Shown: positions 392 to 63,613 of the stretch, piece after piece
How the letters are laid out: every line of letters starts with the position of its first letter
How positions within the stretch are numbered: the stretch's first letter is position 1
From: Patescibacteria group bacterium
Lineage (GTDB): Bacteria > Patescibacteriota > Patescibacteriia > UM-FILTER-42-10
Direction: 5' to 3'
DNA length: 64,000 nt
Assembly (NCBI GenBank): GCA_041664365.1
Contig: JBAYKW010000002.1
Coordinates: 11,858 to 75,857 of the forward strand
Notes under the pieces: model-generated
What the model was told of the DNA's origin: nothing
The model's database searches: none
The model's input: the letters and a program-made list of their open reading frames with translations, nothing else
Made by a program: the position numbers and the translations under genes

Positions 392-394
392 TCC

Positions 395-2666: not shown

Positions 2667-2687
2667 TATAGCAGAAAATATATAAAG

Positions 2688-8060: not shown

Positions 8061-8127
8061 AATTTCCCTCCCCTCAGAGCCAAGGTACAAGGTTGCCAGT
8101 CTGTAGTATATTTATAATAGATATTTT

Positions 8128-8166: not shown

Positions 8167-8236
8167 ATGCGGAACCTTGTTTTTATAGGCATAATTGGTT
8201 ATAATACATAATGAAATAAAGGAATTTAGATACATT

Positions 8237-24366: not shown

Positions 24367-24406
24367 AGTTTTGAATATATCATCACATTAAATCTCTGTC
24401 AAATGG

Positions 24407-24436
24407 GGTAGCTTGGGTGACGTCACCCAAGCTACC
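24407..24436. promoter_or_regulatory. perfect 30-bp palindrome (15-bp arms) in the divergent intergenic region between the cop regulator and the purA-like gene
   Basis: GGTAGCTTGGGTGAC|GTCACCCAAGCTACC read directly. A TTGACT-17-TAAGAT promoter for the purA-like gene follows at about 24445-24473. Confidence 0.6.
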
Positions 24437-24517
24437 CACTGCGTTTGACTCAATTCAGATGTTTTTGTAAGATGATAGACCGTTTTAGTGAGGATTTTCG
24501 GACCAGGGGAGGGTTAT

Positions 24518-25867
24518 ATGCCTATCGACACGATTTGTGGTCTCCAACGGGGAGACGAAGGCAAGGGCGCGATCGTTGATCGCAAACTGGCCTCAGGTAA
24601 GTACACCTGGAATGTCCGTTTCCAGGGAGGTGCCAACGCTGGCCACACTGTGAAGGCTGGTGGAAAGAAGTTGATTCTGCACCAAATCCCTTCTGGCGTC
24701 ATGCACGAGCGGGTCAGGCTGGGCCTCGGTCAGGGCATGATTATCGATCCGTTCGGTCTCCGCGATGAAGTCGAACAGCTTCGGGTTATGGACATCGATG
24801 CGACGGCGCGACTGTGTGTTTCTTCCGGTGCCAAGATCGTCTGTCCGTGGGACAAGCTCCTGGACGGCGCGATCGATCGCGTGCGAGCCAAGGCTATGGG
24901 CATGCAGGTCGCGGAGGGCGGCGGCGTCGGTACTACCAACCGCGGGATCGGTCCCGGCTATGCTAATGCGGTGTCACGGGACGGCATCACGGTGGCGCAG
25001 CTGGTCCGGCCGAACGTGCTCTTCAATCGGATCAAAGTCGTGGTCCCGGTGATCAACTGCATGATCCGCGGTGTGCGCCAGGAGCTGGATTTATCGGAAG
25101 AGCAGCTACCGGAGTACACTGTTTCCGGTGCGTTTGAACAGCTCGCTCCGATCGGCGAATGGATGTCGCTGATTGCGTATCCGCTGCATGAACTGCTGCG
25201 GGTTGCACTTATGGAAGGTGAATTCTTACTCGCAGAGGGCGGACAGGGTTATTTCCTGTCCAACGACTGCACTGTGAGCTATCCCAGCTGCACTTCCTCG
25301 ATCACGACGGCCAACGCCGTTTTCTCGGGGCTCGGACTCGAACTGCGAAGAAGCTGGATCGGTAGCACGATCGGCGTGGTCAAGGCGTACCAGACGGCAG
25401 TGGGTAATCATCCGATGCCCACCTACATCGGCAACGAGTACCAGGAGCGTATCCAGCGGATCGGTGGCGAAATCGGCGCGTCGACCGGCCGGATACGTGA
25501 CTGCTGCTGGCTGAACGGTTTGGAGCTTCGCGAGGCTGCTCAGTTTTGCGACGTGATCTACGTCACCAAGCTGGATGTGCTGTCCGGGATTCCGCTGATT
25601 CCGATCGCAACCGCCCTGCATCCTGACAACCATGCTCCGAATCATCCAGTGCTGACCGATCTCCCGCAAACCTGGGAGGAGTACATGCTCTGCCAGCCGA
25701 TCTACGGCATCAACGTGACCGGCTGGAACGAGGACATCTCCGGCATTCGCAGGATTGCCGACTTGCCGAGCAGTGCGCAGGAATACTTGGCTACGATTGC
25801 CAAGATTGCGTCCAGGATGGTCATCTGCGTCGGTGTCGGTCCTGAACGCGAGCAGTTCTGCGTTTAG
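24518..25867 (+). CDS. purA: adenylosuccinate synthetase family protein (PurA-like; substrate specificity not resolved)
   Basis: GLQRGDEGKGAIVD (P-loop, catalytic Asp), RFQGGANAGHTV (catalytic His retained, first His replaced by Ala), GTTNRGIGPGY, GASTGRIRDCCWLN, TKLDVL. GGGGAGGG RBS before the ATG at 24518. About 62% GC. Confidence 0.7.
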   Translation: MPIDTICGLQRGDEGKGAIVDRKLASGKYTWNVRFQGGANAGHTVKAGGKKLILHQIPSGVMHERVRLGLGQGMIIDPFGLRDEVEQLRVMDIDATARLCVSSGAKIVCPWDKLLDGAIDRVRAKAMGMQVAEGGGVGTTNRGIGPGYANAVSRDGITVAQLVRPNVLFNRIKVVVPVINCMIRGVRQELDLSEEQLPEYTVSGAFEQLAPIGEWMSLIAYPLHELLRVALMEGEFLLAEGGQGYFLSNDCTVSYPSCTSSITTANAVFSGLGLELRRSWIGSTIGVVKAYQTAVGNHPMPTYIGNEYQERIQRIGGEIGASTGRIRDCCWLNGLELREAAQFCDVIYVTKLDVLSGIPLIPIATALHPDNHAPNHPVLTDLPQTWEEYMLCQPIYGINVTGWNEDISGIRRIADLPSSAQEYLATIAKIASRMVICVGVGPEREQFCV

Positions 25868-26155
25868 CAGCTCTTTTGGGAGGTAGTGGGGAGTGTATGC
25901 ACAAGCATCCTTCCCATTTTTTTATTCAAAAGTATTCTTAACTGCCGAAAACTATAATTTATTTGGTTTCTGAAGATGCACTTTATGGGACTTTTTTAAA
26001 GCTATTTGACATTGAATTATGGATAGGAGTATTATAAATCCACGTAAACAAAAACCAAAAAAAATTAGAAACCTTCGCAGCTATGGGGTTATTTTTTTCC
26101 GCCCATTTTACAAAAATACGTTTAAAAATGTGAAAAGTGGGGAGTTTTGACAGAT

Positions 26156-30317: not shown

Positions 30318-30329
30318 TTGAAAACATAA

Positions 30330-30527
30330 TATTAAACTGGAATAGTACCAGGGAACACCGGTGTAAATCCGGGGCAGTCCCGCTACTGTAATCTCAGGGC
30401 ATTTTTTTAGAAAATGTACTGGGAAAGTCAGAATACTGGTATATTCAAAATTAATTCTTTCTCCGCGGATAGGGAAAGAGGTAAAACTGCCGATTTTGCC
30501 TTCCTGTCCTAGGAAGGTTTTTTAATA
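30330..30527 (+). ncRNA. cobalamin (AdoCbl) riboswitch with a terminator-type expression platform
   Basis: cAGGGAAcaccGGTGtAAATCCggggcagtcccGCTACTGTAA matches the conserved core and B12-box of the cobalamin riboswitch consensus. Downstream hairpin GCCTTCCTGTCCTAGGAAGG plus TTTTTT lies 30 nt before the 30557 gene. Confidence 0.7.
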
Positions 30528-30556: not shown

Positions 30557-31021
30557 ATGATCAAGAAGAGAATCGCATTTCTTTTTTCATTACTCCTGCT
30601 GACAACAATAATAGGAGCGGGGTGTACAAATAATCAAGATGCTAACAATCAAGATGTCAACAATCAAAATGTCGGCACAACAAATACTGCTACTGAAAAC
30701 AGCAATGAATCAAATGTTTCAGATGTTGATAGCGATCTGAGTCTTGTAATTACTATGGATGACCAAAGTACCACTTACCCGGTCACAATCCAGAAATATT
30801 CCACTGCGCTGGATGTCTTAAGAAAGGTTGCCGGTGATAATAATCTCGAACTGGATACGCAGGAATCTACCTATGGTGTATATGTTAATGGTCTGGCCGG
30901 GAAAACGGGTGGTGACAACAACAAGTATTGGCTGTATTATATTAACGGAGAGTCTGCCACAATGAGTGTGGTGGATTATATTATTAACGAAGGGGATTCA
31001 ATTGAATTTAAATTTGAATAA
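30557..31021 (+). CDS. secreted lipoprotein, putative cobalamin-binding (DUF4430 / transcobalamin-like) protein
   Basis: Lipobox LTTIIGAGC, a low-complexity NNQD linker, and a C-terminal YWLYYINGE...GDSI.F domain. Directly controlled by the B12 riboswitch. Confidence 0.45.
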   Translation: MIKKRIAFLFSLLLLTTIIGAGCTNNQDANNQDVNNQNVGTTNTATENSNESNVSDVDSDLSLVITMDDQSTTYPVTIQKYSTALDVLRKVAGDNNLELDTQESTYGVYVNGLAGKTGGDNNKYWLYYINGESATMSVVDYIINEGDSIEFKFE

Positions 31022-31022
31022 T

Positions 31023-31598
31023 ATGAAAAATATTTCTTGGAGAAAATTAGTATTCGCTTTACTGCTTATCGCGTTTGGCACACTTGGCAGATATTTGTTA
31101 CTGGATATGCCGAATATTGAAACTATGACGGCGATTTCGCTGTTGGCCGGAGCGCTCTTAGGCGGAGGGTATGCGCTGGCGGTTCCTTTGTTATCAGTTG
31201 CTCTATTTGATATTTTCTACGGTAACAGTTCGATTCTTTTCTTTACCTGGTCGGCCTGGGCAATGATCGGACTGATCGGGTTAGTTTTGAAAAAGAAAAA
31301 GATGTCTGCATGGAAGTTTACAGCCGGTATGACCGGACTGGGAGTTTTATCATCAGTATTATTTTATATATGGACAAATTTCGGTGTCTGGCTGATCGGC
31401 GATTGGTATCCGGAAACAGTAGGTGGTCTAATGACCTGCATGATTGCCGGATTGCCATTTCTTAAAGCGCAAATACTGGGAAACCTGATAGTCGTCCCGA
31501 TAATTTCCATTTCTCTAAGTTTCGTCTGGCAAAAATTTGAGGTTTTACAGCTAAGATTAACGAAAAATAAGCCAAAAAACTCCGATATTGTAATTTAA
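31023..31598 (+). CDS. ECF-transporter S-component-like membrane protein (putative cobalamin-specific, CbrT-like)
   Basis: About 190 aa with 5-6 TM helices. Immediately downstream of the riboswitch-controlled B12-binding protein. The ATG at 31023 is preferred over the overlapping TTG/ATG at 30966. Confidence 0.45.
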   Translation: MKNISWRKLVFALLLIAFGTLGRYLLLDMPNIETMTAISLLAGALLGGGYALAVPLLSVALFDIFYGNSSILFFTWSAWAMIGLIGLVLKKKKMSAWKFTAGMTGLGVLSSVLFYIWTNFGVWLIGDWYPETVGGLMTCMIAGLPFLKAQILGNLIVVPIISISLSFVWQKFEVLQLRLTKNKPKNSDIVI

Positions 31599-31853: not shown

Positions 31854-33647
31854 ATGAATTCGTTCAACAAGTTCGGCCAAGCTCGGTGGTATGCGATGGT
31901 CTTCATCGGCGTGATTACCGCTGCGCAGGTGGTTAGGGGCAACTGGTTCGGTTTCGTGGAAGGTCTGTTGTCGATGGGAATCATGGCCGTCATGATGTGG
32001 GTGTGGCTGCCGATCTTCATCCGACAGCTGGCCGACCAGTACCTTTTCTTCTTGCGGGCGAAGGAAATGCGCGCCTACATGATTGAGAAGGACGGAAAGT
32101 TGGTCCGGCTCATCATCGCGGTACTGGCAAAGGACCGTCCGCGGTTCGAGGTGCTCAAGATGGAACAAGAAGCAAGGGGAATCCGGGTTGACCTGGTTGA
32201 CCCTTCGAGCTCCTTGTATTACATCGGAGTGCCTTGGAAGTTCAAGGCCAAGTTTTGGTTTGAGTATCCGGCGGACGAAACGTCTCCCGAATTGCATCCC
32301 CAGTACTCGATGATTCTTTCTGAAAGGACCATCGATTACCAAGCGCCCGAAGTGCCCACGGCGGACTTCATTGAGATCACTGCCAAGCTGGTGATCTCAT
32401 TGATTGTGGTGAATCCGCTCAAAGCAGTTTATGGCGTTAACCATTACATGGAGGCAGTGATCTTCCTGATCAACTCCAGGTGGCGTAGGGTTGCCACTAC
32501 TCTGCACTTCTTCTACTACGGAGAGGATGCAGAGGCGCCAAAGGATCTCAATACGGTGCTCTCCAGACTGGAGACACTAAAGAGAGATCCGGAAATCTAT
32601 CAGAAGGCTCACGGAGCACTGCTGGTGGATCTCTGGCTGGCCGGGCGCTGTCAGAAGTACAAGGTCGCTGTCGGGGAAGATGGCAATCCCAAAGCAATTG
32701 CTGACGGGAGGCCGGAACCTCGATACTGGAACGTCCAGGACTCCAAGGTAATGGATGGCACGGAGACTTTCGGAGGAAATGTCTACAACGTCTATGGAGA
32801 CTTTGAAGGCAGATTCTTCTATGTTCGCGAAGAAGCGGATGAAAGCCTCGTGCTGATGTGTGGTAAGGAAGGAGAATCCCCGATTTCATTCGTCGAAAGC
32901 GACCGTAGCAAGGTCGTGGTCAGACCGGAACAGCGCGTGCTGTTTCTGTTTACCAAGTCGGGAGATTCTTGGGATGGGGTCCGTGCCTACTTCAAGTACG
33001 GGATTCCCGCCGACAAGCCGGCTCGTCGGCTAGTCATACACTTCGGTGTCTTCCCGAAAGACGTCGAAATACAAGACATCGGCACCCAGCGCAATATCAA
33101 GGAGGCCCTGGAAAAGCCCGCTATTGCCATTGCCAATGCTCTTGCTGCCAGGCAAGAAGCAGAAGGAATGAAAGCGGTCAAGGTTCTTGAAGCAGAAGGG
33201 GAAAAGCAGGCCAAGATCCTTCAGGGTGAAGGTGAAGAGAAGCGTTTGTCCTCTGTGGGCGCAGGCGAGGGCACAGCGAAGCGCCTGGTTGGTGAAGGAG
33301 AAGGCGCGGCAGTGCTTGCGGTCCACAAGGGACACGCCGATGGTTTCGCCGCTCAAATGGCGGCGCTTGGAATCAAACCGGGCGAGGCGGCTGCCTTGTC
33401 TATGTTGAGTGCCGAAGCAGTGCGTCAAATGGCAATTTCTGCTAAGCAGCTCACTGTTATAGGGGCTGAAGGCATTAACAACCTATTTGGCGTTGTGCCG
33501 GCTCTTGCGCAGCTCTGGAACAGAGAAGGGAACACTCCCTCTGAAGCTGATGTGATCAAAGTATTGTCCGGCCTTAGCGTGGCTGAACGACAGTCCGTGT
33601 TCGATGCGTTGCCCAGAACCAATAGTGGTGAGGACAGCGTTTCCTAA
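31854..33647 (+). CDS. SPFH/band-7 domain protein with a flotillin-type C-terminal coiled/EA-repeat region and a central insertion of about 200 aa
   Basis: N-terminal TM helices. Band-7 block DFIEITAKLVISLIVVNPLKAVYGVNHYMEAVIFLINSRWRRVATT fits the SPFH pattern D..ka.y.v.ny..av..l..t.lR. The C-terminus (KEALEKPAIAIANALAARQEAEGMKAVKVLEAEGEKQAKIL...AAALSMLSAEAVRQMAISAKQLTVIGAEG) resembles flotillin/YqiK tails. AAGGAG RBS. About 60% GC. Confidence 0.6.
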   Translation: MNSFNKFGQARWYAMVFIGVITAAQVVRGNWFGFVEGLLSMGIMAVMMWVWLPIFIRQLADQYLFFLRAKEMRAYMIEKDGKLVRLIIAVLAKDRPRFEVLKMEQEARGIRVDLVDPSSSLYYIGVPWKFKAKFWFEYPADETSPELHPQYSMILSERTIDYQAPEVPTADFIEITAKLVISLIVVNPLKAVYGVNHYMEAVIFLINSRWRRVATTLHFFYYGEDAEAPKDLNTVLSRLETLKRDPEIYQKAHGALLVDLWLAGRCQKYKVAVGEDGNPKAIADGRPEPRYWNVQDSKVMDGTETFGGNVYNVYGDFEGRFFYVREEADESLVLMCGKEGESPISFVESDRSKVVVRPEQRVLFLFTKSGDSWDGVRAYFKYGIPADKPARRLVIHFGVFPKDVEIQDIGTQRNIKEALEKPAIAIANALAARQEAEGMKAVKVLEAEGEKQAKILQGEGEEKRLSSVGAGEGTAKRLVGEGEGAAVLAVHKGHADGFAAQMAALGIKPGEAAALSMLSAEAVRQMAISAKQLTVIGAEGINNLFGVVPALAQLWNREGNTPSEADVIKVLSGLSVAERQSVFDALPRTNSGEDSVS

Positions 33648-33664
33648 ATTCGTGGAGGTGTGTC

Positions 33665-34768
33665 GTGGACATTCTGCTTCTCATAGTTCTTCTGCTGGCA
33701 TTTGGTGCGTATTCCCTGAATTCCTGGTTCAGGAAACGCAACGGCACCAGCACTCAACGCAGAGTAACGAGTAGTTCGAGACTGCTCTTCCCAACCATCG
33801 CGCTCATCGTGATCGCGGTGATCGGACACTACGTCTTTCACTGGAAGGTGGGTAGCGCCATCTTCCTCATCATCCTGACTGCTGCGGTGGTCGGTGGTAT
33901 CTGGTGGTTCCGGCGCAAACCGGCCTACTCCCGTTTCGGTGGTAAGCCGTTCGGTACGTTCGTCGGTAACAATATCAAACTCATCGGATGGCTCGTGTTC
34001 CACGTGGCCTTCTGGTGCGTGGTCGCAAACATGGACGGCAACTGGGACTACGTCAAGGAGTGGTGGTGGGGTAAGTACAGCTTGTTTCTGTACCCCATGC
34101 ACTTGATCTACATCACGCGCGGCAGCTTTCCGGACGTGGTCACAGGGAAGTACACTTTCCCGAACAGGATCACGAAGTGGGCATTCACATTCCTGTTCAT
34201 TCTGATGCTGTATGCACCGTTCTGCCACGTTACTCAGCGCGAGTCGATCCTGAGCCGATACGCGGGCTTCAACGAGTCCGGTTCGGCGCACTACAACATT
34301 CCGGGTCGGCAGTCGCCTGACTCGGACGAACTTCAGCGCGGGCAGTTCAATATCAACGTCACGCCGGAAGGACGTGACGCGAACGGTCTCGTGAAGAAGA
34401 TGAGGGTTGGCACTTTGCCGGCCGGTACCACGTGGATCCAGACCTGGAATATCAGTGGTCGGGTCTACACCAAATATCTGATCTATCAGTGGATCGGCGA
34501 CCGGCTGAAAGTCTACGACAAGATCCTCGTTGACAACAATCAGTTGGCTTCGCCGGACACCGATGGCGATGGCTTCTTGACCGTCAGCCAGAGTCCGTTG
34601 ATGCTCATGCTGGGTGCCGACGGGAAGACGGGGTGGAAGATCGTCAATTCCGAGCGGTACGAATTCGCACCCCTGGCTCAGGATACCGAGGTATTTGTCC
34701 TGATCTACTCCGATCAGGAGAGACCCGGTACTGGAGGCGTCAGCTTCCATCTGCGGTCAGGAATCTGA
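33665..34768 (+). CDS. GC-rich polytopic membrane protein (about 6 TM) with a C-terminal soluble beta-rich domain; operon partner of the SPFH protein
   Basis: Hydrophobic helices (LLLIVLLLAFGAY, LLFPTIALIVIAVIGHYVF, AIFLIILTAAVVGGIWWF, IGWLVFHVAFWCVV...). Begins 17 bp after the upstream stop. A strong terminator follows. Confidence 0.5.
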   Translation: MDILLLIVLLLAFGAYSLNSWFRKRNGTSTQRRVTSSSRLLFPTIALIVIAVIGHYVFHWKVGSAIFLIILTAAVVGGIWWFRRKPAYSRFGGKPFGTFVGNNIKLIGWLVFHVAFWCVVANMDGNWDYVKEWWWGKYSLFLYPMHLIYITRGSFPDVVTGKYTFPNRITKWAFTFLFILMLYAPFCHVTQRESILSRYAGFNESGSAHYNIPGRQSPDSDELQRGQFNINVTPEGRDANGLVKKMRVGTLPAGTTWIQTWNISGRVYTKYLIYQWIGDRLKVYDKILVDNNQLASPDTDGDGFLTVSQSPLMLMLGADGKTGWKIVNSERYEFAPLAQDTEVFVLIYSDQERPGTGGVSFHLRSGI

Positions 34769-34805
34769 TATGTACATTTCCTGGGTGGCCCCATGCACAG
34801 TGTCT

Positions 34806-34862
34806 TACAAACGCTCGTGCATGGACCACCCTTTTTTCTTACAAAAAAAACTGTTTTCAGTG
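34806..34862 (+). terminator. rho-independent terminator
   Basis: GGTGGCCCCATGCAC...GTGCATGGACCACC long hairpin followed by CTTTTTTCTT. Confidence 0.6.
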
Positions 34863-34997
34863 CATTAATTGAATTTTGTTTGAATTAAATATTGGGGCCC
34901 CCGACGAGCGTAGCTCGGTGGGGAAAGGGGTATAGACTCGAAACTAAAATAATCGAGTTTATAACTCGATTATGACAGTGGAGAGTCTAATGACCCG

Positions 34998-35074
34998 TGG
35001 TAGCAGGGGAGAGGTTCGAACTCTCGACCTCGGGCTTATGAGTCCCGCGCTCTAACCAGCTGAGCTACCCTGCC
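34998..35074 (-). tRNA. tRNA-Met (CAT), elongator-type
   Basis: Minus-strand cloverleaf GGCAGGG-TA-GCTC.AGCTGGTTA.GAGC...CTCATAA...GAGAG.TTCGAAC.CTCTC-CCCTGCT-A-CCA. G1-U72 pairs, CCA encoded. Confidence 0.75.
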
Positions 35075-35377
35075 GCGTCCTTTTTATGCTTCAGGTTTCG
35101 TACTTCCCGCTTTGCGGGAACTACTTCACCTTTCGCATAAAAACTCCTTTCCTCGCAAAGGCGTGCTCGTCGAGCTTACGCTCTCCTGCGCTACTCCTTT
35201 GCTCGGGTTTTTATTCTTTATATTTTATGACTTGTGTGCTTCTATAACACTCGGTTGGTTTTGAGTTTAATTGGGGCCCCCGACGAGCAAAGCTCGGTGG
35301 GGAAAGGGGCATAATGCGTAGGGTGAAGTGAATGCAATAATTTGCAGACACGGAACCCGAAGCATTTAAATGACCCT

Positions 35378-35453
35378 TGGTTGCGGGGGGCGGACTCGAA
35401 CCGCCGACCTCCAGGTTATGAGCCTGACGAGCTGACCACTGCTCTACCCCGCG
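35378..35453 (-). tRNA. tRNA-Met (CAT), initiator-like (C1xA72 mismatch)
   Basis: CGCGGGG-TA-GAGC.AGTGGTCA.GCTC...CAGG.CTCATAA.CCTG...GGCGG.TTCGAGT.CCGCC-CCCCGCA-A-CCA. An unpaired C1/A72 and GG/CC pairs next to the anticodon loop suggest tRNA-fMet. Confidence 0.65.
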
Positions 35454-35818
35454 TCGAGTGATCGCGAACTGCGACCTACATTTGTCCGGAACTGATGTTC
35501 CGAACAAATTCCGATCTCCGTTCGCGTCCCTCTCTCCTCGCAAAGGCGTGCTCGTCGAGCTCACGCTCTCCTGCGCTACTCCTTTGCTCGGGTTTTATAT
35601 TCTATGCCTTATGCGCTTCCAATTTACTCGTTAGAATTTTTATTGTTAATATGCTACCGCAGTTTAGCCTAAATATATTATTTTGGCAAGTTTCATAGTG
35701 TATATCGTAAAATGGGGTCCCCGACGAGCAAAGCTCGGTGTGGAGAGGGACACAAATGTGAAAGGTGAAGTGAATGCAATAATTTGCAGACACGGAACCT
35801 AAAACATTTGATGACCCG

Positions 35819-35905
35819 TGGTACCGGGAGAGAGACTTGAACTCTCATGATGTTGCCATCACTGGATTTTGAGTCCAGCGCGTCTGCCAGTTCCGCCATC
35901 CCGGC
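35819..35905 (-). tRNA. tRNA-Leu (CAA) with a long variable arm
   Basis: GCCGGGA-TG-GCGG.AACTGGCAGA.CGC...CTGGA.CTCAAAA.TCCAG-TGATGGCAACATCATG-AGAG.TTCAAGT.CTCT-CTCCCGGT-A-CCA read from the minus strand. Confidence 0.75.
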
Positions 35906-35912
35906 TTGATTT
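35888..35912. repeat. 25-bp direct repeat DR1 (the tRNA-Leu 5' end plus 7 nt of upstream flank)
   Basis: cagttccgccatcccggcttgattt. Identical to 36280-36304 except that the preceding base differs. Confidence 0.8.
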
Positions 35913-36168: not shown

Positions 36169-36279
36169 GTTGATATTGTATTACGGATTATTAAATAACA
36201 ATGATTAGTAAATAGTAATTTCCGCCATCTCGTACCACACAGGGTACGTGATAGCCATGAACCCTTTAGTGGTTCATGG

Positions 36280-36304
36280 CAGTTCCGCCATCCCGGCTTG
36301 ATTT
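36280..36304. repeat. 25-bp direct repeat DR2 (an orphan copy of the tRNA-Leu 5' end), preceded by a perfect hairpin GCCATGAACC-ctttagt-GGTTCATGGC
   Basis: ggttcatggCAGTTCCGCCATCCCGGCTTGATTTgaaaca read directly. Confidence 0.8.
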
Positions 36305-36365
36305 GAAACAGATATTACAAATATCTTTATCTCATACACTAGTCTAAATGGAATACAGCTTTCCT

Positions 36366-36403
36366 GTCAACCTCGTTAGAGAAAAACTCTCTAACGGGGT
36401 CAA
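36366..36403. promoter_or_regulatory. palindromic intergenic element (copy 2) upstream of the parA promoter
   Basis: gtcaacctcgttagagaaaaactctctaacggggtcaa. A TATAAT sits at about 36451 before parA. Confidence 0.55.
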
Positions 36404-49400: not shown

Positions 49401-49647
49401 TATCAAATGCAAATGATTTCAACCAAAAATTCAGCATTACCCTAATTGTCTCCGATTGTCCTGAATCCTTGGTTAACCAAAAAAGCGCCCTGTGATCAAA
49501 TGAGGGGGAGGTGAGGATATTACTGATGATTAATGATTGCAGAGTTCCGTTACTCAGGGCTGAAAACGTGTTTTCAGTCAGCTCATTTCCGTGTTTTGGT
49601 AATGCTTCTGAGATGAGGTTGCGGAATCCGAGATTGATTTTTTCCAC
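46498..49647 (-). CDS. mfd: transcription-repair coupling factor
   Basis: 1049 aa. Superfamily-2 helicase core ([36 protein letters not shown]), UvrB-homology N-terminus and TRCF C-terminal domain. Confidence 0.85.
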
Positions 49648-49709
49648 TTTTGTTAAATTTCGAGGCTAAAATTAGCCAAATATTATACTGTTTGAGTTTA
49701 TAAATCTTG

Positions 49710-49745
49710 ATCCCGTTAGAGGATTTTCTCTAATGGGGTTGACAA
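49710..49745. promoter_or_regulatory. palindromic intergenic element (copy 3), followed by TTGACA
   Basis: tcccgttagaggattttctctaatggggTTGACAaaaaaacaaattatgcTAACAT. The palindrome abuts a possible promoter facing the ncRNA/tRNA region. Confidence 0.5.
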
Positions 49746-49939
49746 AAAAACAAATTATGCTAACATTATACTTCACATTTCAAGAAACAGCCAGCATATT
49801 TTACAAATAAATATCAAAGTTACTGTTTACCAAGCTGCTTGCAAGTGGCGAAAATTTAAACAACCCCTCCTTAGTTTTTATTAGTAGCTATAAAGATAGG
49901 AACTATTTCTACATGGAATATTTCTATCGCTTGTAAGTG

Positions 49940-50200
49940 GCCTAGTGAACAGTAGATGTAGTGCCCAGCGTGCTATTTATAAGTCGGTTAAGAGTATTGT
50001 ATCCTCCTTAACAATACCCTTTGCCATCAGACTTATAGATAGCACCCTGGGTATTATGACATATTGGGTCCGTTGGCATCTCCGATGCCAAACTGAAGAA
50101 GCGATGGGGCTCTCCGCAAGGAAGCCCGTTTCCGAAAGGAATCCCTTGGCGAGCATCGACCAATCAGTTTCTCGCTCACGCGAGACGGGCCCACCTAAGT
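49940..50200 (+). ncRNA. candidate structured RNA (GC-rich, [11 protein letters not shown] leader or ncRNA) upstream of the tRNA cluster; identity unresolved
   Basis: Perfect hairpin TTGGCATC-tccg-GATGCCAA, and an imperfect long hairpin with an apical GNRA loop (CGCAAGGAAGCCCG-TTCC-GAAA-GGAA-TCCCTTGGCG). The overlapping ORF 49945..50247 runs into a tRNA and is not credible as coding. Confidence 0.3.
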
Positions 50201-50206
50201 CTTGTT

Positions 50207-50282
50207 GGGGATGTAGCTCAGTTGATAGAGCATCCTGCTTTCAGTAGGAAGGTCGTAGGTTCAAGTCCTACCATCCCTGCCA
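50207..50282 (+). tRNA. tRNA-Glu (TTC)
   Basis: GGGGATG-TA-GCTC.AGTTGATA.GAGC-A-TCCTG.CTTTCAG.TAGGA-AGGTC-GTAGG.TTCAAGT.CCTAC-CATCCCT-G-CCA. Confidence 0.7.
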
Positions 50283-50292
50283 TTTATTTGGT

Positions 50293-50367
50293 GTCCCGTT
50301 AGCTTAATGGCAGAGCAGCTGACATCTCAATCAGCCGATCGGGGTTCGAGTCCTCGACGGGGCACCA
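50293..50367 (+). tRNA. tRNA-like gene with an 8-nt anticodon loop (CATCTCAA); anticodon unresolved (CTC or TCT possible)
   Basis: GTCCCGT-TA-GCTT.AATGGCA.GAGC-A-GCTGA.CATCTCAA.TCAGC-CGAT-CGGGG.TTCGAGT.CCTCG-ACGGGGC-A-CCA. The cloverleaf is otherwise good. Confidence 0.5.
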
Positions 50368-50385
50368 TTCTGCACATTGTAAGGT

Positions 50386-50460
50386 TGGCGCGTAGCTCAG
50401 CTGGATAGAGCGTCCCACTCTGTGGGAAGGTCTCGGGTTCGATTCCCGACGCGCCGACCA
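50386..50460 (+). tRNA. tRNA-like gene with a shortened anticodon arm (5-bp stem plus 5-nt loop TCCCA.CTCTG.TGGGA); possible pseudo-tRNA or unusual tRNA
   Basis: TGGCGCG-TA-GCTC.AGCTGGATA.GAGC-G-TCCCACTCTGTGGGA-AGGTC-TCGGG.TTCGATT.CCCGA-CGCGCCG-A-CCA. It is 75 nt, 2 nt short in the anticodon arm. Confidence 0.45.
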
Positions 50461-50476
50461 TTTGGTCTCACTGGTT

Positions 50477-50547
50477 GCCAGCGTAGTTCAGCTTGAAGAA
50501 CACTTGATCTGTTTTCAAGAGTTCGTCAAACTCCTCCGCTGGCACCA
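50477..50547 (+). other. tRNA-like fragment or pseudogene (71 nt, ends in CCA; no regular T-arm)
   Basis: GCCAGCG-TA-GTTC.AGCTTGAA.GAAC-A-CTTGA.TCTGTTT.TCAAG-...-CGCTGGC-A-CCA. The acceptor, D-arm and anticodon arm are tRNA-like, but the region between anticodon arm and acceptor is too short. Confidence 0.35.
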
Positions 50548-50554
50548 GAAAATC

Positions 50555-50627
50555 GCCCACGTGGCTCAAATGGTAGAGCATCACACCAGGAGTGTGAAGA
50601 TTACTAGTTCGAATCTAGTCGTGGGCT
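50555..50627 (+). tRNA. tRNA gene of standard length (no CCA encoded) with a non-canonical anticodon loop CCAGGAG (no U33); anticodon unresolved
   Basis: GCCCACG-TG-GCTC.AAATGGTA.GAGC-A-TCACA.CCAGGAG.TGTGA-AGATT-ACTAG.TTCGAAT.CTAGT-CGTGGGC-T, followed by a T-run. Confidence 0.5.
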
Positions 50628-50632
50628 CTTTT

Positions 50633-51166
50633 TTATTGCAAAAAATTTTTGATTCTTGCTACAAACTCCGGCAGTTGTGATTTTAACTGCTTCTTTTCCT
50701 GCAGGGTAAATTTCTGCAAAACAAAACTCGCCGGATCTATTTTGGCAAGCAGGTCATTTTTAATACCCACTTTAATTTGAATAAAACCTTTACTGCCGAT
50801 ATTTTCAATAATTGAATTAATGCCGTTGTGCCCGCCGGAACCGCTGTCTTGCTTTTCCCGGTACTTCCCGAATTCCAGATCCAAATCATCCCGCACAATT
50901 ACAATATCTTCCAGATCCACCTTGTAAAAGTTTTTTAAGAGTGATACTGCCTTTCCGGAATTATTCATGAAAGTCAGTGGTTTAGCCAAAATCAACTTTT
51001 GATCATTGATCTGCCCCTGAGTGAGGTCGGATTGAAACTTCTTCACAGTTTTAAAGGAAGAAATAGACAAAGCCTTGATCAGCTCATCCAACATTAACCA
51101 GCCGACATTATGCCTTGTGTTTTTGTATTTTATCCCCGGGTTTCCTAACCCTATGATTAGTTTCAT
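50633..51166 (-). CDS. pth: peptidyl-tRNA hydrolase
   Basis: MKLIIGLGNPGIKYKNTRHNVGWLMLDEL is the canonical Pth N-terminus with the catalytic His. Confidence 0.85.
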   Translation of the reverse strand: MKLIIGLGNPGIKYKNTRHNVGWLMLDELIKALSISSFKTVKKFQSDLTQGQINDQKLILAKPLTFMNNSGKAVSLLKNFYKVDLEDIVIVRDDLDLEFGKYREKQDSGSGGHNGINSIIENIGSKGFIQIKVGIKNDLLAKIDPASFVLQKFTLQEKKQLKSQLPEFVARIKNFLQ

Positions 51167-57772: not shown

Positions 57773-60700
57773 ATGTTGACCAAAGGGAGGAAAAACTCAA
57801 AACAAAAAAGTTTTTTTGGACTAGGTATGCTGACTAGCGCTTTACTGGGGGTTTTTGTGACCGGCGCGGTCAGTTTTTTTGTTACACCGATTGCAAATGC
57901 AATATCATTTGATTCTACTTTGGGTGCCACTTTTGGTCTGGGTACCAGAGACCTTCTGGAGACGGTAATCAACATTGTCCAATGGGCATTGGGCCTTTTG
58001 GGTCTGGTGGCGGTAATTATCATAATGTACGGCGGGTTTGTTTGGATGACTGCCAAAGGCAATCAGGATAAAATTGCCAAGGCAAAAAAGATTATATTTA
58101 ACGGTTTGATCGGTCTCGCGATTGTCCTATTATCGTGGGCGATTGTATTTTTTGTCATGCGGACGATTGATGACGCGACGAGCGGTGGGTCGGTAATGTG
58201 TGGTGCAGCTGTTTGCAGTGAGACTTGTTGTCCCGGCAATATTTGTGCAACCAGTTGCGGTAGCGGATCATTCCCAACAGCTGATCTTGAGATTACAGGA
58301 TTTGAAGCTTCGCGTGAAACGCAACCATCTGGCCCCGTTACTCAGTGTTCATCAATAAAAGCGGTGTTTAACGTTCCAATTAATCCTGCAACTGTAGAAG
58401 CGGCAGAACTGCCGGACAATCTGAGAACTGAAGATATTGCAGTCGGTGGACCATTTGCAAGTACAACGGATGACTTTTTAACTTCGGCAAGAACCGTAAC
58501 ATATTATCATGATAGTCTTTTTAACGCCGGAGATTATGAAGAATGGTACCCGACAACAGGTACTCCAATCCAGGATCTGGATTTTAGAAATATTTCAGTT
58601 TGCGACGACTGTACGGACGGACCTGATCCTTGGAAATGGGATTTTACTGTGGGTAATGAAACCGACATCACTCCGCCGGAGATTGATTCTACTTACCCGA
58701 TCTTTTCCGGGGCGGGGTATCCGGACCGGAATGTGTCTCGGGCACCTATTTTCACACTACATTTCGATGAACCGATTGATGATAATTCCATAATGGATGC
58801 AAGTGGGCACCCAAAAAATAATTTTGAACTTTGGGAATGTACGGACGACTCTTGTGGTTCGTTTGTGAGTCAATATAGCAATAACAATCTATTAGTGCAG
58901 TCAATTTCCCAAGGAGTAAATATCTACATTGAGAATCCGGCCGTAAATCCATTAAACTCATTTACTTGGTATCAGATCAGGGTCCAGGGTGTTGAAGATT
59001 TGTGTACTAACCCGATGGTAGGACAGATAGTTTGGGAGTTTGAAACGAACGATGCCGTTCCGGGAGTAGTGAGCTGGTATCCGACCGGACTGAATGAATG
59101 TCCGAGTACGGATATTTACATCACCTTCGGCACTTCCATGTATAACCAAACTTTGCAGATTACGATTGATAATGGCACTGACTTTAGACAATCCCCACCG
59201 CTTTCTCCATCAACAATACCATCTCCAGGACCTTACTATGTCCAATTTGGTAATAATTTTTTTGAAGCAGTGGATACTGCTACCCCTAATGATTTCAAAG
59301 TATTCAGGCTTAGGCCGGACCCGGATCTTGTTGCGAATTCTGCATACATCGTTAATGTCGCAACAAATATGGTGATAGATATTAATGGTAACTATTTAAG
59401 CAAGCAGTGGGGATTTTCCGTTACAGATCCTGCCAGTTGTACCTGTTCACCGTATGTTGCCTATTTCAGTCCCACACAAGGTCCACGTGAGTCGTGTGTA
59501 ACAATTCAGGGCGCTTGTTTCAAAGGAACGCCCGCAAACCCTGCTGTCCCAACTCATATAATTTTTGATGATAATGTGCGTCCTCAGCAATCCGTTGTAC
59601 CTGCACTTGGGACATATGATGATAATTATATTACGACAAAAATCCCGGCAGTATATGATAATAATGACCGTCCACAGGTTCAGGTAGAACTTGATTATGA
59701 TAATCCCAGTTATGGTGTTCTATATTCCGCCGCCTATTATCTTGGCGGGCCGAACTTCTTTGTAAACAGTACGGAAGTATCTGATGGGCCGTGTTTGTGG
59801 TCGATTAGTCCGACTTCGGGCTATGTAGGAACGGGAATGAATGCAACCGGCGAAAGATTTGGTGCAACTCAAGGGTCGGGTCATATCGACTATGGCGGGG
59901 GAGTATCCGGAGTTGTCGGTGGCTGGTCTGATACCGCGATTTCAACATCAGTGCCGGCGGGTGCCGTGAGTGGGGATGTAACTGTAACTAGTGACGTAGC
60001 AGGACCGAGTAACGGGATTAATTTTACAGTTCTGACCGTTCCACCAGGAACACCATATGTTGTGATAAACAATTTTTGTGATCAATATACACTATCATCA
60101 CCTTCCCCATGGCCTGATTATCAGGAAGTATGCCGTAATGTTAAATTTTCTGCTCGGTTTAGCGAAAACATGAATCCTTCAACGATCAATGGTGCAAATG
60201 TTTTTTTTCAACCATGTAATGATGCATCTTGTTTAGTCGTTGGCGCAGCATTAACAGGGGCATTAACCATGCCAACTGGTGATACATTCGAATTTGATCC
60301 CTCAGCATTTTTAAATCCTAACACATGGTATCGCGGTACAATTACCACCGGTGTTCGAAGTCTTTCATCAAACACATCTATGGCAACAGATTATGTTTGG
60401 AAATTTAGGACCAAATTAGATACTACGGAATGCGGTATTGAAGCTTATAATTTAATCGCAGATACGTATTTTCTTTATACTGTTAATTCCGCTCCAAATG
60501 CAATGTTTACTTCTTCTGCGATTGGACCCGCATGTCAGATTTTATCTGGTACTTATGATTGGAATTGGAATGCTAATGTCGGAACTGTACCACCCTATGT
60601 AGCCGAAAGAGTCTTATCATCCGGACCTACGGTATCTCATTATCAAGGTCGTAATGAAGGCTCTGGCATGGTAAGAGCGTGGATATCTGGATCATCAATT

Positions 60701-63613
60701 CCTCCGGTAGAACGTTTACTTACAGTTGATCCTACATTTTGTGAAGATTCAATTCATTGTAATTCATTATGCTCCGGCAGTACTTGCGTGAATAATCACT
60801 GCACGCCGATTATCCAAAGTATTGTGCCAAACCCTTCACCAATTGGCACTGGGGTTACTATCAATGGTTGTATGTTTGGCAGTTATACTGGACTTGCAGG
60901 AGTTGATTTTTCTGGAAGCCCTGGTCCGTGGGTTCCGACATCATGGCCGGCATGTGGTCCGGCGGGAACAACCTGGACGGACACATCTATCGTCGTGGAA
61001 GTGCCGAATGAAGATACTCCGGCAACTTTTGATGATGCGGTAGATGGTCCGATAAGAATAAGAAATAGTTATGGTGAAAGAGATTACACCAATACTCCAC
61101 CAGGTCCAATTATATCTTTTGATGTCGATGGGCCTTTCCATCCAACCCTTTGCTATTTTAATCCGAGCAGCGGAACTCAGGGGCAATTGAATGCTACTGA
61201 AGCGGTGGGAGAAGATTTTGGCACGGATGGCACGATTGATTTTACCAGTAGTGCCGGCAGATCAGATTCTCCGGGATTTACCTCATGGGATGAAACTTCA
61301 ATACAGGAAATAGATCTTCCGGCCGATGCACTGACCGGAACTGGGATTGTACATTCTACGGTTCCTACAGTAGGCGACAGTAATCCTGTTCCATTTGGTA
61401 TTACATGCAATGTTAATTCGGACTGTACCAGCGGATGCTGTTTTACCGGAATGTGTTCCGACCTGGCAATGTGCAGTACCGGCGAACCGGGAGCGCTTTG
61501 TCAAATCCCTGACAATACTTCTTGTCTTTCGGGCCCGCTGTCTTTTCCGGCCGGATATCGCTGTATCAGTGATACCGGTGATATTTATCCTGAAACTCCA
61601 CCACCACCAGGACCACAGGGAGCTGACTGCAGATCGTGTTGTATGCCTGGCACTGAATATAATGGTCTGACTTGTTTATCAAACCAGGATGGCTGTACCG
61701 GACCTGCAAGAGGGCTTTATTGCGGGTGTGCTACTGATGATCAATGCGGAGCCCCGAATACCATCGGTTGCGGTGATATGGGCGGAACTATGTGCTGTAC
61801 CGGCAGGCCGGCTGTATTAAACGTGGATCCGTTTGATGGAGAGCCGAATGTATGTACAAACCGGTCAATCGTGGTTGAATTTAACCAGATTATGGATGCA
61901 TCAACATTTAATTCTTCCACATTTATTGTGGAGGACGCATCCGGTACACCATATACTGGGACGATAGATAGCTACAACGATGGAATCCATACTTTTCTGG
62001 TGTTTTATTCGGATACTGAATGGAATCCGAGTGAATCGCATACCATAACCATTAACGGTGAATCAGATATTAATGACGGTGTTCATGATGGTGTTTTAAA
62101 TCAGTATCAAGTGGGTATGGATGGCATTTTTACATCAACTTTTGATACCGATGCAGACAGGTGTTTATTGGATCACGTCGAAATAAGTATTCAATACGGT
62201 GCTCCATATCCAGCTCAACCAGTTGCTTTTCATGACATGTATACATGTATTCAAAGCAATTGTACCGGTGATGTAGATCCTGTTGCTGGCAACCAGCATA
62301 GATATTTGGCTTGGGCAAAAAATGAATTTAACGCTAATATTTCTGGCGGTACTTGGAACTGGAATAATTCGGTAACCAACGGTGTACTAAATATTTCTTT
62401 ACCAAATTCTCCTTCAACATTAATAGGCACGGATCAAGGTCTGGATGGAACCGCGATGATTCGTGCGGATGTTACTATGCCGTCTGGGGGAGGGTCAGGA
62501 TTTGCGGTGGTACAGGCCACGGTACAGGCGTGCCAGGATCCATGGCCGACTATACCACCATTCTTCTTCAGTGATCCTGCACCGTCCACAAATTTCACGG
62601 ATTTCTATTGTCGTGAGGGCGGTTTACCTGGTACTGCTGATCCTATGATTATTTCCCGTTCACCTGTCGATCCTCTGAAGGATGAACTGCTTAAAGAAAT
62701 GTTTTTCTCAATATGTAAAGACGACGATGCTACATGTATTAGTAGTAATACTTCCGGAGATGTGATTGGAATTCGTGTTATGGAAAACGGCAGTTTTCTT
62801 TCGCCAACCGCCTGGTTCAACCAAATTTTCCCGGAGGATACCGGATCGTGCGTACCAATCGGCACGGTTGATGGATATCAGGCTTGTCGGGCGGGCAGAA
62901 CTATTTATGTCGCGGCATCCAATCATGACGGCACGACACTGTGGCCGAATATCTACCTTATTTCCTATAACGAAGGGGCAAGCGGTCAGACAATCAATAT
63001 CTATAATCAATTAGTTCAGAATTGGTATTTCAACTCCGGACCGAGTTTAATGAATTCTCCTTGCGCCGGAGGAACAAATAAAGATTGTATTGTTCGTGAT
63101 ACGAAGCGTGTTACCGATATCGGTGAAATTGGCTATCTCCTCTTAAACTATGGGTATCATAACAGTGGTTTTCCGGAGCTTTCCGCCGGGACATTCTTGT
63201 CGGGATTTACTTCCAGTAAATGGCCGTCTTGGATGGCTGAATTCGGTAATGCTATTGGCATGAATCCGCCTCTGGATCCGATCAATGAATTTTCCGGAAC
63301 ACCGGCCTGTAGCGTTCCGCCCTACGATCCATCCGGCACCTGCTGGAATGATGCTGAGCATACATTCAATTGTCCCAACACTTCCAAAACCTACGCATAC
63401 CAGTATGATAGTTCAAACCCAAAATTGTTTACCAGACTGGAGTATTCAGGCTTGGGAGCGTATAACAGCGGTATAAGGTCGGATAGACTTTATAGCGGGA
63501 ATCCTTGTGCCGGCTACGCTGGATCTAATTGTTCTGCTTGTTTCAACTATTCTGCTGAAGCTGCGGACGGTACTAACGGATTTTGGATTAACAATTGGCA
63601 ACAACCAAATTAG
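57773..63613 (+). CDS. giant (1946 aa) Cys-rich cell-surface protein with an N-terminal membrane anchor (about 3 TM, pilin/VirB2-like appearance) and many Ig-like/IPT-like beta domains
   Basis: N-terminal hydrophobic helices (LGMLTSALLGVFVTGAVSFFV, ALGLLGLVAVIIIMYGGFVWMTAKG, LIGLAIVLLSWAIVFFV). The remainder is Thr/Ser/Gly/Pro/Cys-rich with repeated beta-domain-like modules and several CxxC/CC clusters. No enzymatic motif recognised. Confidence 0.5.
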   Translation: MLTKGRKNSKQKSFFGLGMLTSALLGVFVTGAVSFFVTPIANAISFDSTLGATFGLGTRDLLETVINIVQWALGLLGLVAVIIIMYGGFVWMTAKGNQDKIAKAKKIIFNGLIGLAIVLLSWAIVFFVMRTIDDATSGGSVMCGAAVCSETCCPGNICATSCGSGSFPTADLEITGFEASRETQPSGPVTQCSSIKAVFNVPINPATVEAAELPDNLRTEDIAVGGPFASTTDDFLTSARTVTYYHDSLFNAGDYEEWYPTTGTPIQDLDFRNISVCDDCTDGPDPWKWDFTVGNETDITPPEIDSTYPIFSGAGYPDRNVSRAPIFTLHFDEPIDDNSIMDASGHPKNNFELWECTDDSCGSFVSQYSNNNLLVQSISQGVNIYIENPAVNPLNSFTWYQIRVQGVEDLCTNPMVGQIVWEFETNDAVPGVVSWYPTGLNECPSTDIYITFGTSMYNQTLQITIDNGTDFRQSPPLSPSTIPSPGPYYVQFGNNFFEAVDTATPNDFKVFRLRPDPDLVANSAYIVNVATNMVIDINGNYLSKQWGFSVTDPASCTCSPYVAYFSPTQGPRESCVTIQGACFKGTPANPAVPTHIIFDDNVRPQQSVVPALGTYDDNYITTKIPAVYDNNDRPQVQVELDYDNPSYGVLYSAAYYLGGPNFFVNSTEVSDGPCLWSISPTSGYVGTGMNATGERFGATQGSGHIDYGGGVSGVVGGWSDTAISTSVPAGAVSGDVTVTSDVAGPSNGINFTVLTVPPGTPYVVINNFCDQYTLSSPSPWPDYQEVCRNVKFSARFSENMNPSTINGANVFFQPCNDASCLVVGAALTGALTMPTGDTFEFDPSAFLNPNTWYRGTITTGVRSLSSNTSMATDYVWKFRTKLDTTECGIEAYNLIADTYFLYTVNSAPNAMFTSSAIGPACQILSGTYDWNWNANVGTVPPYVAERVLSSGPTVSHYQGRNEGSGMVRAWISGSSIPPVERLLTVDPTFCEDSIHCNSLCSGSTCVNNHCTPIIQSIVPNPSPIGTGVTINGCMFGSYTGLAGVDFSGSPGPWVPTSWPACGPAGTTWTDTSIVVEVPNEDTPATFDDAVDGPIRIRNSYGERDYTNTPPGPIISFDVDGPFHPTLCYFNPSSGTQGQLNATEAVGEDFGTDGTIDFTSSAGRSDSPGFTSWDETSIQEIDLPADALTGTGIVHSTVPTVGDSNPVPFGITCNVNSDCTSGCCFTGMCSDLAMCSTGEPGALCQIPDNTSCLSGPLSFPAGYRCISDTGDIYPETPPPPGPQGADCRSCCMPGTEYNGLTCLSNQDGCTGPARGLYCGCATDDQCGAPNTIGCGDMGGTMCCTGRPAVLNVDPFDGEPNVCTNRSIVVEFNQIMDASTFNSSTFIVEDASGTPYTGTIDSYNDGIHTFLVFYSDTEWNPSESHTITINGESDINDGVHDGVLNQYQVGMDGIFTSTFDTDADRCLLDHVEISIQYGAPYPAQPVAFHDMYTCIQSNCTGDVDPVAGNQHRYLAWAKNEFNANISGGTWNWNNSVTNGVLNISLPNSPSTLIGTDQGLDGTAMIRADVTMPSGGGSGFAVVQATVQACQDPWPTIPPFFFSDPAPSTNFTDFYCREGGLPGTADPMIISRSPVDPLKDELLKEMFFSICKDDDATCISSNTSGDVIGIRVMENGSFLSPTAWFNQIFPEDTGSCVPIGTVDGYQACRAGRTIYVAASNHDGTTLWPNIYLISYNEGASGQTINIYNQLVQNWYFNSGPSLMNSPCAGGTNKDCIVRDTKRVTDIGEIGYLLLNYGYHNSGFPELSAGTFLSGFTSSKWPSWMAEFGNAIGMNPPLDPINEFSGTPACSVPPYDPSGTCWNDAEHTFNCPNTSKTYAYQYDSSNPKLFTRLEYSGLGAYNSGIRSDRLYSGNPCAGYAGSNCSACFNYSAEAADGTNGFWINNWQQPN

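Follow-up and report, generated by a model that had tools for sequence, protein, structure and literature searches.

A non-coding transcription unit joining a structured RNA to tRNA-derived modules in a narrow clade of uncultured Patescibacteria

Organisation of the locus

The window analysed here is a stretch of 64,000 nucleotides (nt) from a Patescibacteria group bacterium (assembly GCA_041664365.1, contig JBAYKW010000002.1, positions 11,858 to 75,857), whose sequence matches the metagenome contig ena:ERZ27249449:k141_638568 and whose nearest genomes are uncultured Patescibacteria close to Kerfeldbacteria and Falkowbacteria. Its plus strand carries, at approximately 49739-50635, one non-coding transcription unit with a predicted transcript of about 870 nt, in which a structured RNA is followed by an array of five modules of transfer RNA (tRNA) type, termed t1 to t5. 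The unit is placed between a convergent pth and a divergent mfd, opposite in strand to both, and its neighbours are housekeeping genes (mfd, pth, der, a lytR-family gene, dprA, topA, a signal peptidase gene and hisS). An initial sequence-only reading had delimited a tRNA cluster and a GC-rich candidate non-coding RNA (ncRNA) at 49940-50627; these boundaries do not hold, as the RNA starts further upstream, at about 49773. The components of the unit are the following.

49739..49766, plus strand: sigma-70-like promoter, TTGACA, a 16-nt spacer and a TG-extended TAACAT, with 10 of 12 consensus positions matched
49767..49818, plus strand: 5' leader, weakly conserved (51-68% identity between lineages), with a short 5' hairpin there in relatives
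49819..49958, plus strand: ncRNA domain I, a long closing helix enclosing two inner hairpins, one of which shows the 12-nt loop AACCCCUCCUUA (CCTCCTTA at 49866-49873)
49959..50056, plus strand: ncRNA domain II, a near-perfect hairpin of 98 nt and -48.8 kcal/mol, whose apical loop is AUCCUCCUUA (CCTCCTTA at 50003-50010)
50066..50193, plus strand: ncRNA domain III, multibranch, with the closing helix GGGUCCGU/ACGGGCCC
50207..50282, plus strand: t1, a clean cloverleaf with the 7-nt loop CUUUCAG, called Glu(UUC) by ARAGORN, with a G1.U72 pair, discriminator G73 and an encoded CCA
50293..50367, plus strand: t2, cloverleaf-shaped and ending in ACCA, its anticodon loop CAUCUCAA (50323-50330) being 8 nt long
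50386..50460, plus strand: t3, a tRNA-Arg-like body with D loop AGCUGGAUA, the stem UCCCA/UGGGA, the 5-nt loop CUCUG (50418-50422) and an ACCA end
50477..50547, plus strand: t4, a 71-nt tRNA-derived rod hairpin with an acceptor stem and ACCA, a D arm and an anticodon arm with the loop UCUGUUU
50555..50627, plus strand: t5, tRNA-like, no CCA encoded, discriminator U, the loop CCAGGAG (50586-50592) with C33 and A34, and a T-run directly after it
50628..50637, plus strand: U-run (C, then TTTTTT, then ATT) directly 3' of t5, the presumed transcript end

Protein-guided retrieval recovered the pth-array-mfd order in five further lineages, referred to below as A to E, with W denoting the lineage of the window.

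Lineage A: loci L002 and L084
Lineage B: loci L088-L090
Lineage C: loci L091-L094
Lineage D: loci L095 and L096
Lineage E: locus L097, on a contig that ends inside the upstream RNA

All lineages have in common the promoter, the structured RNA (about 430 nt), an array of tRNA-type modules that varies between them, and a final t5 followed by the U-run. One further contig (L098), from a separate metagenome (JGI 3300037810), is 100% identical to the window across 49580-50638; because it derives from a different metagenome, the odd loops of the array are not assembly errors, and an assembly artefact was thereby ruled out as their source. Lineage B (L090, L088) and the window lineage (the window, L098) were found together in two samples, ENA ERZ27249449 and JGI 3300037810, and two related populations with differing array versions thus live side by side.

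Relatives with a Pth of about 60% identity are without the locus. In JGI metagenomes, a 19-mer scan returned the lineage A contig and five chance matches, and no more; the covariance model of domain III found no match outside the five lineages in the 331 kb searched, and exact-motif scans of metagenomes and viral contigs revealed no additional carriers. Since the relatives, the motif scans and the covariance model gave nothing further, the unit is restricted to one narrow clade of uncultured Patescibacteria. A phage origin was rejected as well: BLAST searches against phage records showed generic tRNA similarity only, three exact-motif scans of viral contigs were empty and the neighbours are core housekeeping genes.

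Promoter, upstream RNA and transcript end

Transcription is predicted to start at about 49773. The promoter is 75-93% identical in lineages A-D, versus 40-49% for the sequence directly upstream of it. A palindromic element of about 40 nt (CCCGTTAGAGGATTTTCTCTAATGGGG) occurs in three copies in the window (49704-49747, 8124-8168 and 36365-36403, 84-87% identity); of these, the one immediately 5' of the promoter represents an insertion, lineages A-D being without it at this locus. At the other end of the unit, the U-run overlaps the pth stop codon on the opposite strand (50633-50635) and is kept after t5 in all six lineages. A generic terminator scan did not call it, because its stem is the tRNA-like module itself.

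The upstream RNA comprises three domains in its approximately 430 nt and adopts a like fold in every lineage. The region 49930-50206 has a folding energy of -113.7 kcal/mol, with z = -7.5 relative to shuffled sequence. In the RNAalifold consensus of five lineages, the domain I pair 41:58 goes from G-C to A-U and domain II features both compensatory and mismatch-repairing changes, amounting for domains I-II to compensatory changes in 5 of 85 pairs; in domain III, compensatory double changes affect 10 of the 45 predicted pairs. Identity between lineages reaches 85-89% in domain I and 87-95% in domain II. Across the three domains it is 85-95% among W, A, B and D (78% for domain III against A) and lower against C, at 61-89%. 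With R1, a covariance model of domain III, scores of 77-151 bits were obtained in each of the five lineages. The hairpins of this domain include a perfect one of 8 bp (50073-50091), one capped by GCAA (about 50106-50127), one capped by GAAA (50130-50141) and UCUCGC-UCAC-GCGAGA (50170-50185). The perfect hairpin and one GNRA-capped hairpin had already been recognised in the sequence-only reading, and its GC-rich ncRNA candidate is strongly supported by the folding z-score, the compensatory changes and the recurrence in five lineages.

In a gathering scan of the window with Rfam 15, no family other than tRNA exceeded the threshold at the array locus or in the upstream RNA, and at E<=10 the locus in W and in lineage C returned, besides tRNA, only chance hairpin matches to microRNA and snoRNA models. 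The comparison with SRP, 6S and other families that had been suggested for the upstream region gave no family match at E<=10, and RNase P, SRP, 6S, tmRNA, GOLLD, ROOL, OLE, HEARO and group I/II introns were all rejected on this basis. For a group I intron within a tRNA gene, moreover, there was no Intron_gpI match at E<=10 and there were no split exon halves, and the downstream tRNA-like genes are complete. A hidden protein-coding gene was likewise discarded, with no open frame conserved across lineages on either strand; a candidate minus-strand open reading frame (ORF) of 11 codons has lost its start codon in the window lineage. The upstream RNA is structured and belongs to a family not described before.

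Modules of the array in the window

The modules were searched with ARAGORN and with the Rfam tRNA model RF00005 (gathering threshold 29 bits). ARAGORN made plus-strand calls at 50207-50282, 50293-50367, 50386-50460 and 50555-50628, and four of the five modules lie above the RF00005 threshold (t1 64.3, t2 52.6, t3 53.1 and t5 61.4 bits), while t4 was called by neither program, even at E<=10. The output of ARAGORN for t2 is 'tRNA-??? (tctc)', and the Rfam alignment of this module puts an insert in the loop. For t3 the same alignment deletes two loop positions, and ARAGORN forces an Arg(UCU) assignment by opening an A-U pair, which yields ACUCUGU with C33. The T arm of t4 is lost or truncated and its remodelled D arm pairs with the remainder of the T-arm region, giving a rod that folds at -28.7 kcal/mol (z = -5.8; z = -5.1 for the lineage D version) and whose loop has C33 and U37. 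In t5, C32 and G38 are able to pair, which would produce a 6-bp anticodon stem with the 5-nt loop CAGGA. A 7-nt loop with U33 and a purine at position 37 is found in t1 alone, and D-loop G18-G19, a T arm and a 3' CCA occur together in t1-t3, t4 being without the T arm and t5 without the CCA.

The odd anticodon arms described from the sequence, namely the 8-nt loop of t2, the 5-nt loop of t3, the 71-nt t4 and the CCAGGAG loop of t5, are therefore real features of the DNA. The possibility of a misread, which had been raised together with them, is excluded, as the tools reproduce the loops and L098 is identical; canonical 7-nt loops for every member, the outcome that would have pointed to faulty manual folding, were not returned, given the 'tRNA-???' label of t2 and the uncalled t4. 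The oddity had been described as local, and the control tRNAs, on the minus strand at 35-36 kb and tRNA-Val at 54.3 kb, are indeed canonical (loops CUCAAAA, CUCAUAA twice and UUCACAU) and all encode CCA. The status of t1 as the single canonical member stands as far as its shape is concerned. In E. coli, U11-A24 in the D stem marks tRNA-Glu; t1 carries C11-G24, its body is without the E. coli tRNA-Glu features and its counterparts in other lineages mostly have abnormal loops. It starts 14 nt past the closing helix of domain III, a place occupied in lineage E by t2.

A further peculiarity concerns the acceptor ends. A GGU leader pairs with A73-C74-C75 and adds 3-5 bp to t2 in six of six lineages and to t3 in W, D and E, and its equivalent in t4 is a CUGG-CCAG pairing that contains a bulged U; such leader-ACCA pairing is absent in 11 of 12 control tRNAs. 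The minimum free energy fold of the array shows the extended closing helices at t2-t4, with z = -4.8. The labels that ARAGORN assigns to array genes are Glu, Arg and Pro, and labels of this type could mislead tRNA inventories of such genomes, as well as inferences on their genetic code and auxotrophies.

Variation of the array across lineages

The array comprises 3-6 modules per lineage, and module content and anticodons shift between close relatives. The counterparts of t1 have 5-nt loops in A (UUUCG) and B (CUUUG) and the loop ACUCGUA in D; the module is absent in E, and its acceptor and T stems are altered between lineages by compensatory substitutions. The 8-nt loop of t2 was seen in W only: A (in its second copy), B, D and E carry CUCUUAA, the canonical loop for Lys, and C has a CAU loop of Met type. 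The acceptor pair 2:71 of this module covaries (U.G, C-G, U-A, A-U). The 5-nt loop CUCUG of t3 recurs in W, D and E, where the anticodon stem changes from UCCC/GGGA to UUCC/GGAA, a compensatory C-G to U-A replacement with the 5-nt loop retained; t3 is chimeric and accompanied by a microhelix remnant in A, deleted in B and provided with a different body in C. The position of t4 is occupied in E by a canonical tRNA-Phe(GAA) of 78.3 bits, in W and D by the rod hairpin, and in B it is mostly deleted. In lineage A, an insertion of about 31 nt (shared 30-nt pattern CCCAAGGCTGACCAGCCNCAGGCTGGCAAT) lies in the T loop of two modules including t4 (L002 3650-3679 and 3898-3927); the pattern is absent from the other lineages and from the window, and it could represent a small element targeting T loops or the product of gene conversion.

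The terminal module t5 encodes no CCA in any lineage, and its D loop is without G18-G19 in four of five. In W, A, B and E a 6-bp stem carries the loop CAGGA, CAGGU or CAGGG; in D the loop is CGCGGGA, with G33 and a 2-nt insertion; in C the arm has grown to a 9-bp stem with a large loop. Position 37 is A, U or G across lineages.

These data bear on the proposal that the modules are genuine but unusual decoders, for example with t2 as a +1 frameshift suppressor, with C33-tolerant tRNAs, or with editing of C33 to U and of A34 to inosine. Four modules do score 52-64 bits as clean cloverleaves, three of them with CCA, and t3 and t5 acquire 7-nt loops with sense anticodons if the 32-38 pair opens. 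A different departure from annotation rules is already known for tRNA genes of Patescibacteria, namely introns at position 35/36 (PMC13011429). Nevertheless, the 8-nt loop is specific to one lineage, t4 lacks a T arm, t5 combines a variable position 37 with G33 and the insertion in D, no CCA and a shortened D loop without GG, and the canonical tRNAs of the window obey the usual rules. Differences in module content between close relatives are, moreover, hard to square with essential decoding. Ordinary decoding is unlikely because of the 5- and 8-nt loops, C33 or G33, the variable position 37, the missing CCA and mostly missing G18-G19 of t5 and the missing T arm of t4, and the decoder explanation offered in the sequence-only reading is accordingly not supported: we regard it as very unlikely, the restriction of the 8-nt loop, the features of t5 and the lack of a correlation with AAG usage all speaking against it.

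The AAG fractions (0.22 in both W and D, 0.31 in C, 0.32 in B) bear no relation to the integrity of the Lys(CUU) module, a weak sign that this module is redundant. As a test for the loss of Lys(CUU) in W, codon usage with these values was set aside as uninformative.

Decay or selection

Another explanation holds that the array consists of duplicated or acquired tRNA genes which are no longer needed, the odd arms being stages of neutral pseudogenisation. Several of the above observations agree with it: t4 is a canonical Phe(GAA) in E, truncated in W and D, interrupted by an insertion in A and mostly deleted in B; the 8-nt loop of t2 is confined to W, where four other lineages have the canonical CUCUUAA; chimeric modules and microhelix remnants are found in A and B; and AAG usage is indifferent to the integrity of t2. 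Furthermore, tRNA arrays with a few pseudogenes are already known (PMC8421152).

Neutral benchmarks were provided by the four-fold degenerate sites of pth and der, 26-64% identical between lineages (mostly 30-50%, a level close to saturation), and by non-coding flanks, 40-57% identical; tRNA-Val, canonical and syntenic, shows 100% identity among W, B and D. Against these values of 30-57%, the most abnormal modules are the best conserved, with identities of 93-99% for t3 in W, D and E and of 86-93% for t5 in W, A, B, D and E. Between W and D, sp3 and sp4, the spacers that separate t3, t4 and t5, are 100% identical. Stem pairing is preserved through compensatory changes, and in W and D the truncated t4 folds into a stable rod that is conserved (z of about -5 to -6), not into a random wreck. 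In addition, the 23-27 sites at which strains of lineage C differ all precede domain III, within the first 302 nt, and leave the array untouched. Because identities of 86-99% contrast with benchmarks of about 30-57%, and because the t3 stem has changed in a compensatory manner, t3 and t5 are, together with the rod-shaped t4, held by purifying selection and not drifting in neutral decay.

Conservation, compensatory changes and remodelled yet stable folds disfavour simple pseudogenes, and the modules with odd loops are probably not dead genes. Neutral decay as an account of the array is thus considered unlikely. It does hold for particular modules in particular lineages, that is for the remnants of A and B, and perhaps for the loop of t2 in W. 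The suggestion of pseudogenes from a decayed array made in the sequence-only reading is consequently upheld in part, in that t4 derives from tRNA-Phe(GAA), the t2 loop from Lys(CUU), and deletions, fusions and insertions are evident; it fails for t3 and t5, with their identity of 86-99%.

Possible roles of the unit

The interpretation that we tentatively favour, at somewhat less than an even chance, is that of a clade-specific non-coding RNA operon in which the modules derived from tRNAs have been retained for structure, processing or stabilisation and not for decoding. According to this model, the sigma-70-like promoter would drive a transcript consisting of the three-domain RNA of about 430 nt and then the tRNA-derived array, with the CCA-less t5 and the U-run last. 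The abnormal modules would no longer decode codons and would serve as recognition sites at which RNase P or another tRNA-processing enzyme would cleave the long transcript; processing at the modules would define and protect the ends of the upstream RNA. Alternatively, the modules would be integral folded domains of the RNA of about 870 nt. The descriptive parts of this model deserve much higher confidence than the mechanism; they are the existence of one transcription unit, the structured nature of the upstream RNA and the selection that acts on the odd modules.

Several points weigh against such a role. Both the transcript ends and the cleavage by RNase P are predicted from sequence. A single tRNA suffices as a processing signal, which leaves the maintenance of several modules unexplained, and so is the conservation of the loop sequences CUCUG and CAGG themselves. 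The leader-ACCA pairing is expected to hinder, not to help, bacterial RNase P. In model bacteria, the loop nucleotides C35, U35 and G35-G36 are used by aminoacyl-tRNA synthetases; these are kept in t1-t4, which retain their ACCA ends as well and may for both reasons still be charged. Recombination between lineages could account for part of the high identity, notably between W and D across t3-t5, although the adjacent 3' end of pth is not unusually similar. Finally, the covariation statistics are weak because there are only six lineages, all of one narrow clade.

In a different proposal, non-decoding tRNAs would act outside the ribosome as amino-acid donors, regulators or decoys for tRNA-binding proteins, the loop changes barring their entry into the ribosome and the candidate partners being aminoacyl-tRNA synthetases, transferases, toxins or modification enzymes. 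Acceptor stems and ACCA are kept in t1-t4, t3 has a tRNA-Arg-like D loop and U-C-U in its loop, GG is always kept in the t5 loops, C33 recurs in six loop variants across lineages, and it is the loop sequences themselves that are conserved. However, the housekeeping neighbours of the unit (pth, der, lytR, mfd and dprA) include no linked gene for a partner enzyme, t5 is without CCA, some lineages do without whole modules, and the leader pairing hides the ACCA ends, at least in the precursor. A function of this kind, whether as donor, regulator or decoy, seems quite unlikely.

A slim chance is given to the whole transcript of about 870 nt being one ornate clade-specific RNA, in which the tRNA-shaped domains with their buried ACCA ends would be integral working parts. 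Such an RNA could engage the translation apparatus by mimicking the tail of 16S ribosomal RNA (rRNA) together with bound tRNAs. The idea arises from CCUCCUUA, displayed by two hairpin loops (domains I and II) that hold the sole two copies of this 8-mer in the window, and which we take to be the 3'-terminal anti-Shine-Dalgarno sequence of E. coli 16S rRNA. Since a repeated 8-mer within 430 nt is unsurprising by chance, the motif is treated as a lead only. GGAGG within 22 nt upstream of the start codon was found for one of the 33 long ORFs in the window (26784-29714), and the upstream regions are A/T-rich; from these sequences the organism seems to start translation largely without Shine-Dalgarno sites, and this single case among 33 makes a role of CCUCCUUA as an mRNA sponge unlikely. 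The motif was also considered as Shine-Dalgarno sites of minus-strand genes and rejected, there being no start codon at the proper distance and Shine-Dalgarno sites being scarcely used in the genome. An RNA mimicking the tail might sequester a ribosomal protein or factor with affinity for the 16S tail, similar to what has been proposed for OLE RNA and the ribosomal protein RpsU (bS21).

If the favoured model of non-decoding modules on a processed or stabilised RNA is true, bacteria too, like eukaryotes and viruses, reuse tRNA genes as non-decoding modules on larger structured RNA, and the poorly studied, genome-reduced Patescibacteria would contribute an undescribed large RNA family.

Relation to known systems

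Frameshift-suppressor tRNAs of the sufD/sufB type have 8-nt anticodon loops, and the t2 of the window resembles them in being an otherwise normal cloverleaf with such a loop. It differs in that the loop is specific to W, with a normal Lys(CUU) in four other lineages, and nothing points to a dependent frameshift site, recoding sites not having been searched.

A mechanistic parallel to a processing role is found in eukaryotes, where MALAT1 is processed by RNase P at mascRNA (PMC8457004). In MALAT1-mascRNA and NEAT1-menRNA, as in the present unit, a non-decoding tRNA-shaped module lies directly 3' of a structured ncRNA (PMC8457004) and leader-trailer pairing lengthens the acceptor stem, with a bulged nucleotide as in t4. 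Those systems are eukaryotic and have one module, whereas the unit here is bacterial, has up to five, and its cleavage by RNase P is predicted; the likeness to MALAT1-mascRNA is one of mechanism only, with no homology.

GOLLD and ROOL RNAs adjoin tRNA islands and are sometimes covalently linked to them (PMC12286853, PMC5737381). They share with the unit a large, multi-domain structured RNA physically linked to tRNA genes, which in GOLLD are sometimes covalently joined, but the RNA described here has no Rfam match, lies amid core chromosomal genes and not in a prophage, is smaller at about 430 nt and is limited to one narrow clade.

Bacterial tRNA arrays, such as the trn operon of Anabaena (PMC8421152) and those of a survey which defined an array by at least 20 tRNA genes (PMC4758250), are likewise clustered, co-transcribed and partly redundant, with pseudogene or non-canonical members and recombination-driven change. 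In contrast to arrays of at least 20 genes, the unit has 3-6 modules at a fixed chromosomal locus, a large conserved structured RNA in front, and abnormal members that are the conserved ones. Within the same phylum, group I introns interrupt tRNA genes of Patescibacteria (PMC13011429). These too are structured RNAs of a few hundred nt tied to tRNA genes that annotation tools mishandle; the RNA described here, unlike them, lies upstream of complete tRNA-like genes and not in an anticodon loop.

Additional features of the window

The minus-strand region 34891-35912 holds two tRNA-Met genes and one tRNA-Leu gene, all canonical, in repeat units of about 380-440 bp. They are flanked by conserved, GC-rich, structured-looking elements (44-, 55- and 65-nt repeats, 80-97% identity), with a terminator-like hairpin after each tRNA and a promoter-like site and structured leader before the next, and here too, tRNAs of this genome may be set within structured RNA. 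A 28-nt copy (36277-36304, 96% identical) of the 5' end of tRNA-Leu(CAA) (35885-35912) lies about 390 bp past the gene and looks like the scar of an integration or duplication at the tRNA.

Islands with a GC content of 52-58% (about 42% for the genome) at 1-6000, 24000-26000 and 32000-35000 are protein-coding and not RNA genes, and their composition suggests horizontal acquisition. Their products include NTP-transferase/GlmU-like, radical SAM and adenylosuccinate-lyase-like proteins, adenylosuccinate synthetase, a weakly SPFH-like ORF and an ORF without a Pfam match. An AdoCbl (cobalamin) riboswitch (30324-30487, plus strand, 57.3 bits) lies upstream of ORFs at 30557-31598. Lastly, the plus-strand gene at 57773-63613 encodes a protein of 1946 amino acids with an N-terminal T4SS-pilin-like domain and Big_5/TIG Ig-like domains, which looks like a giant surface or pilus-associated protein.

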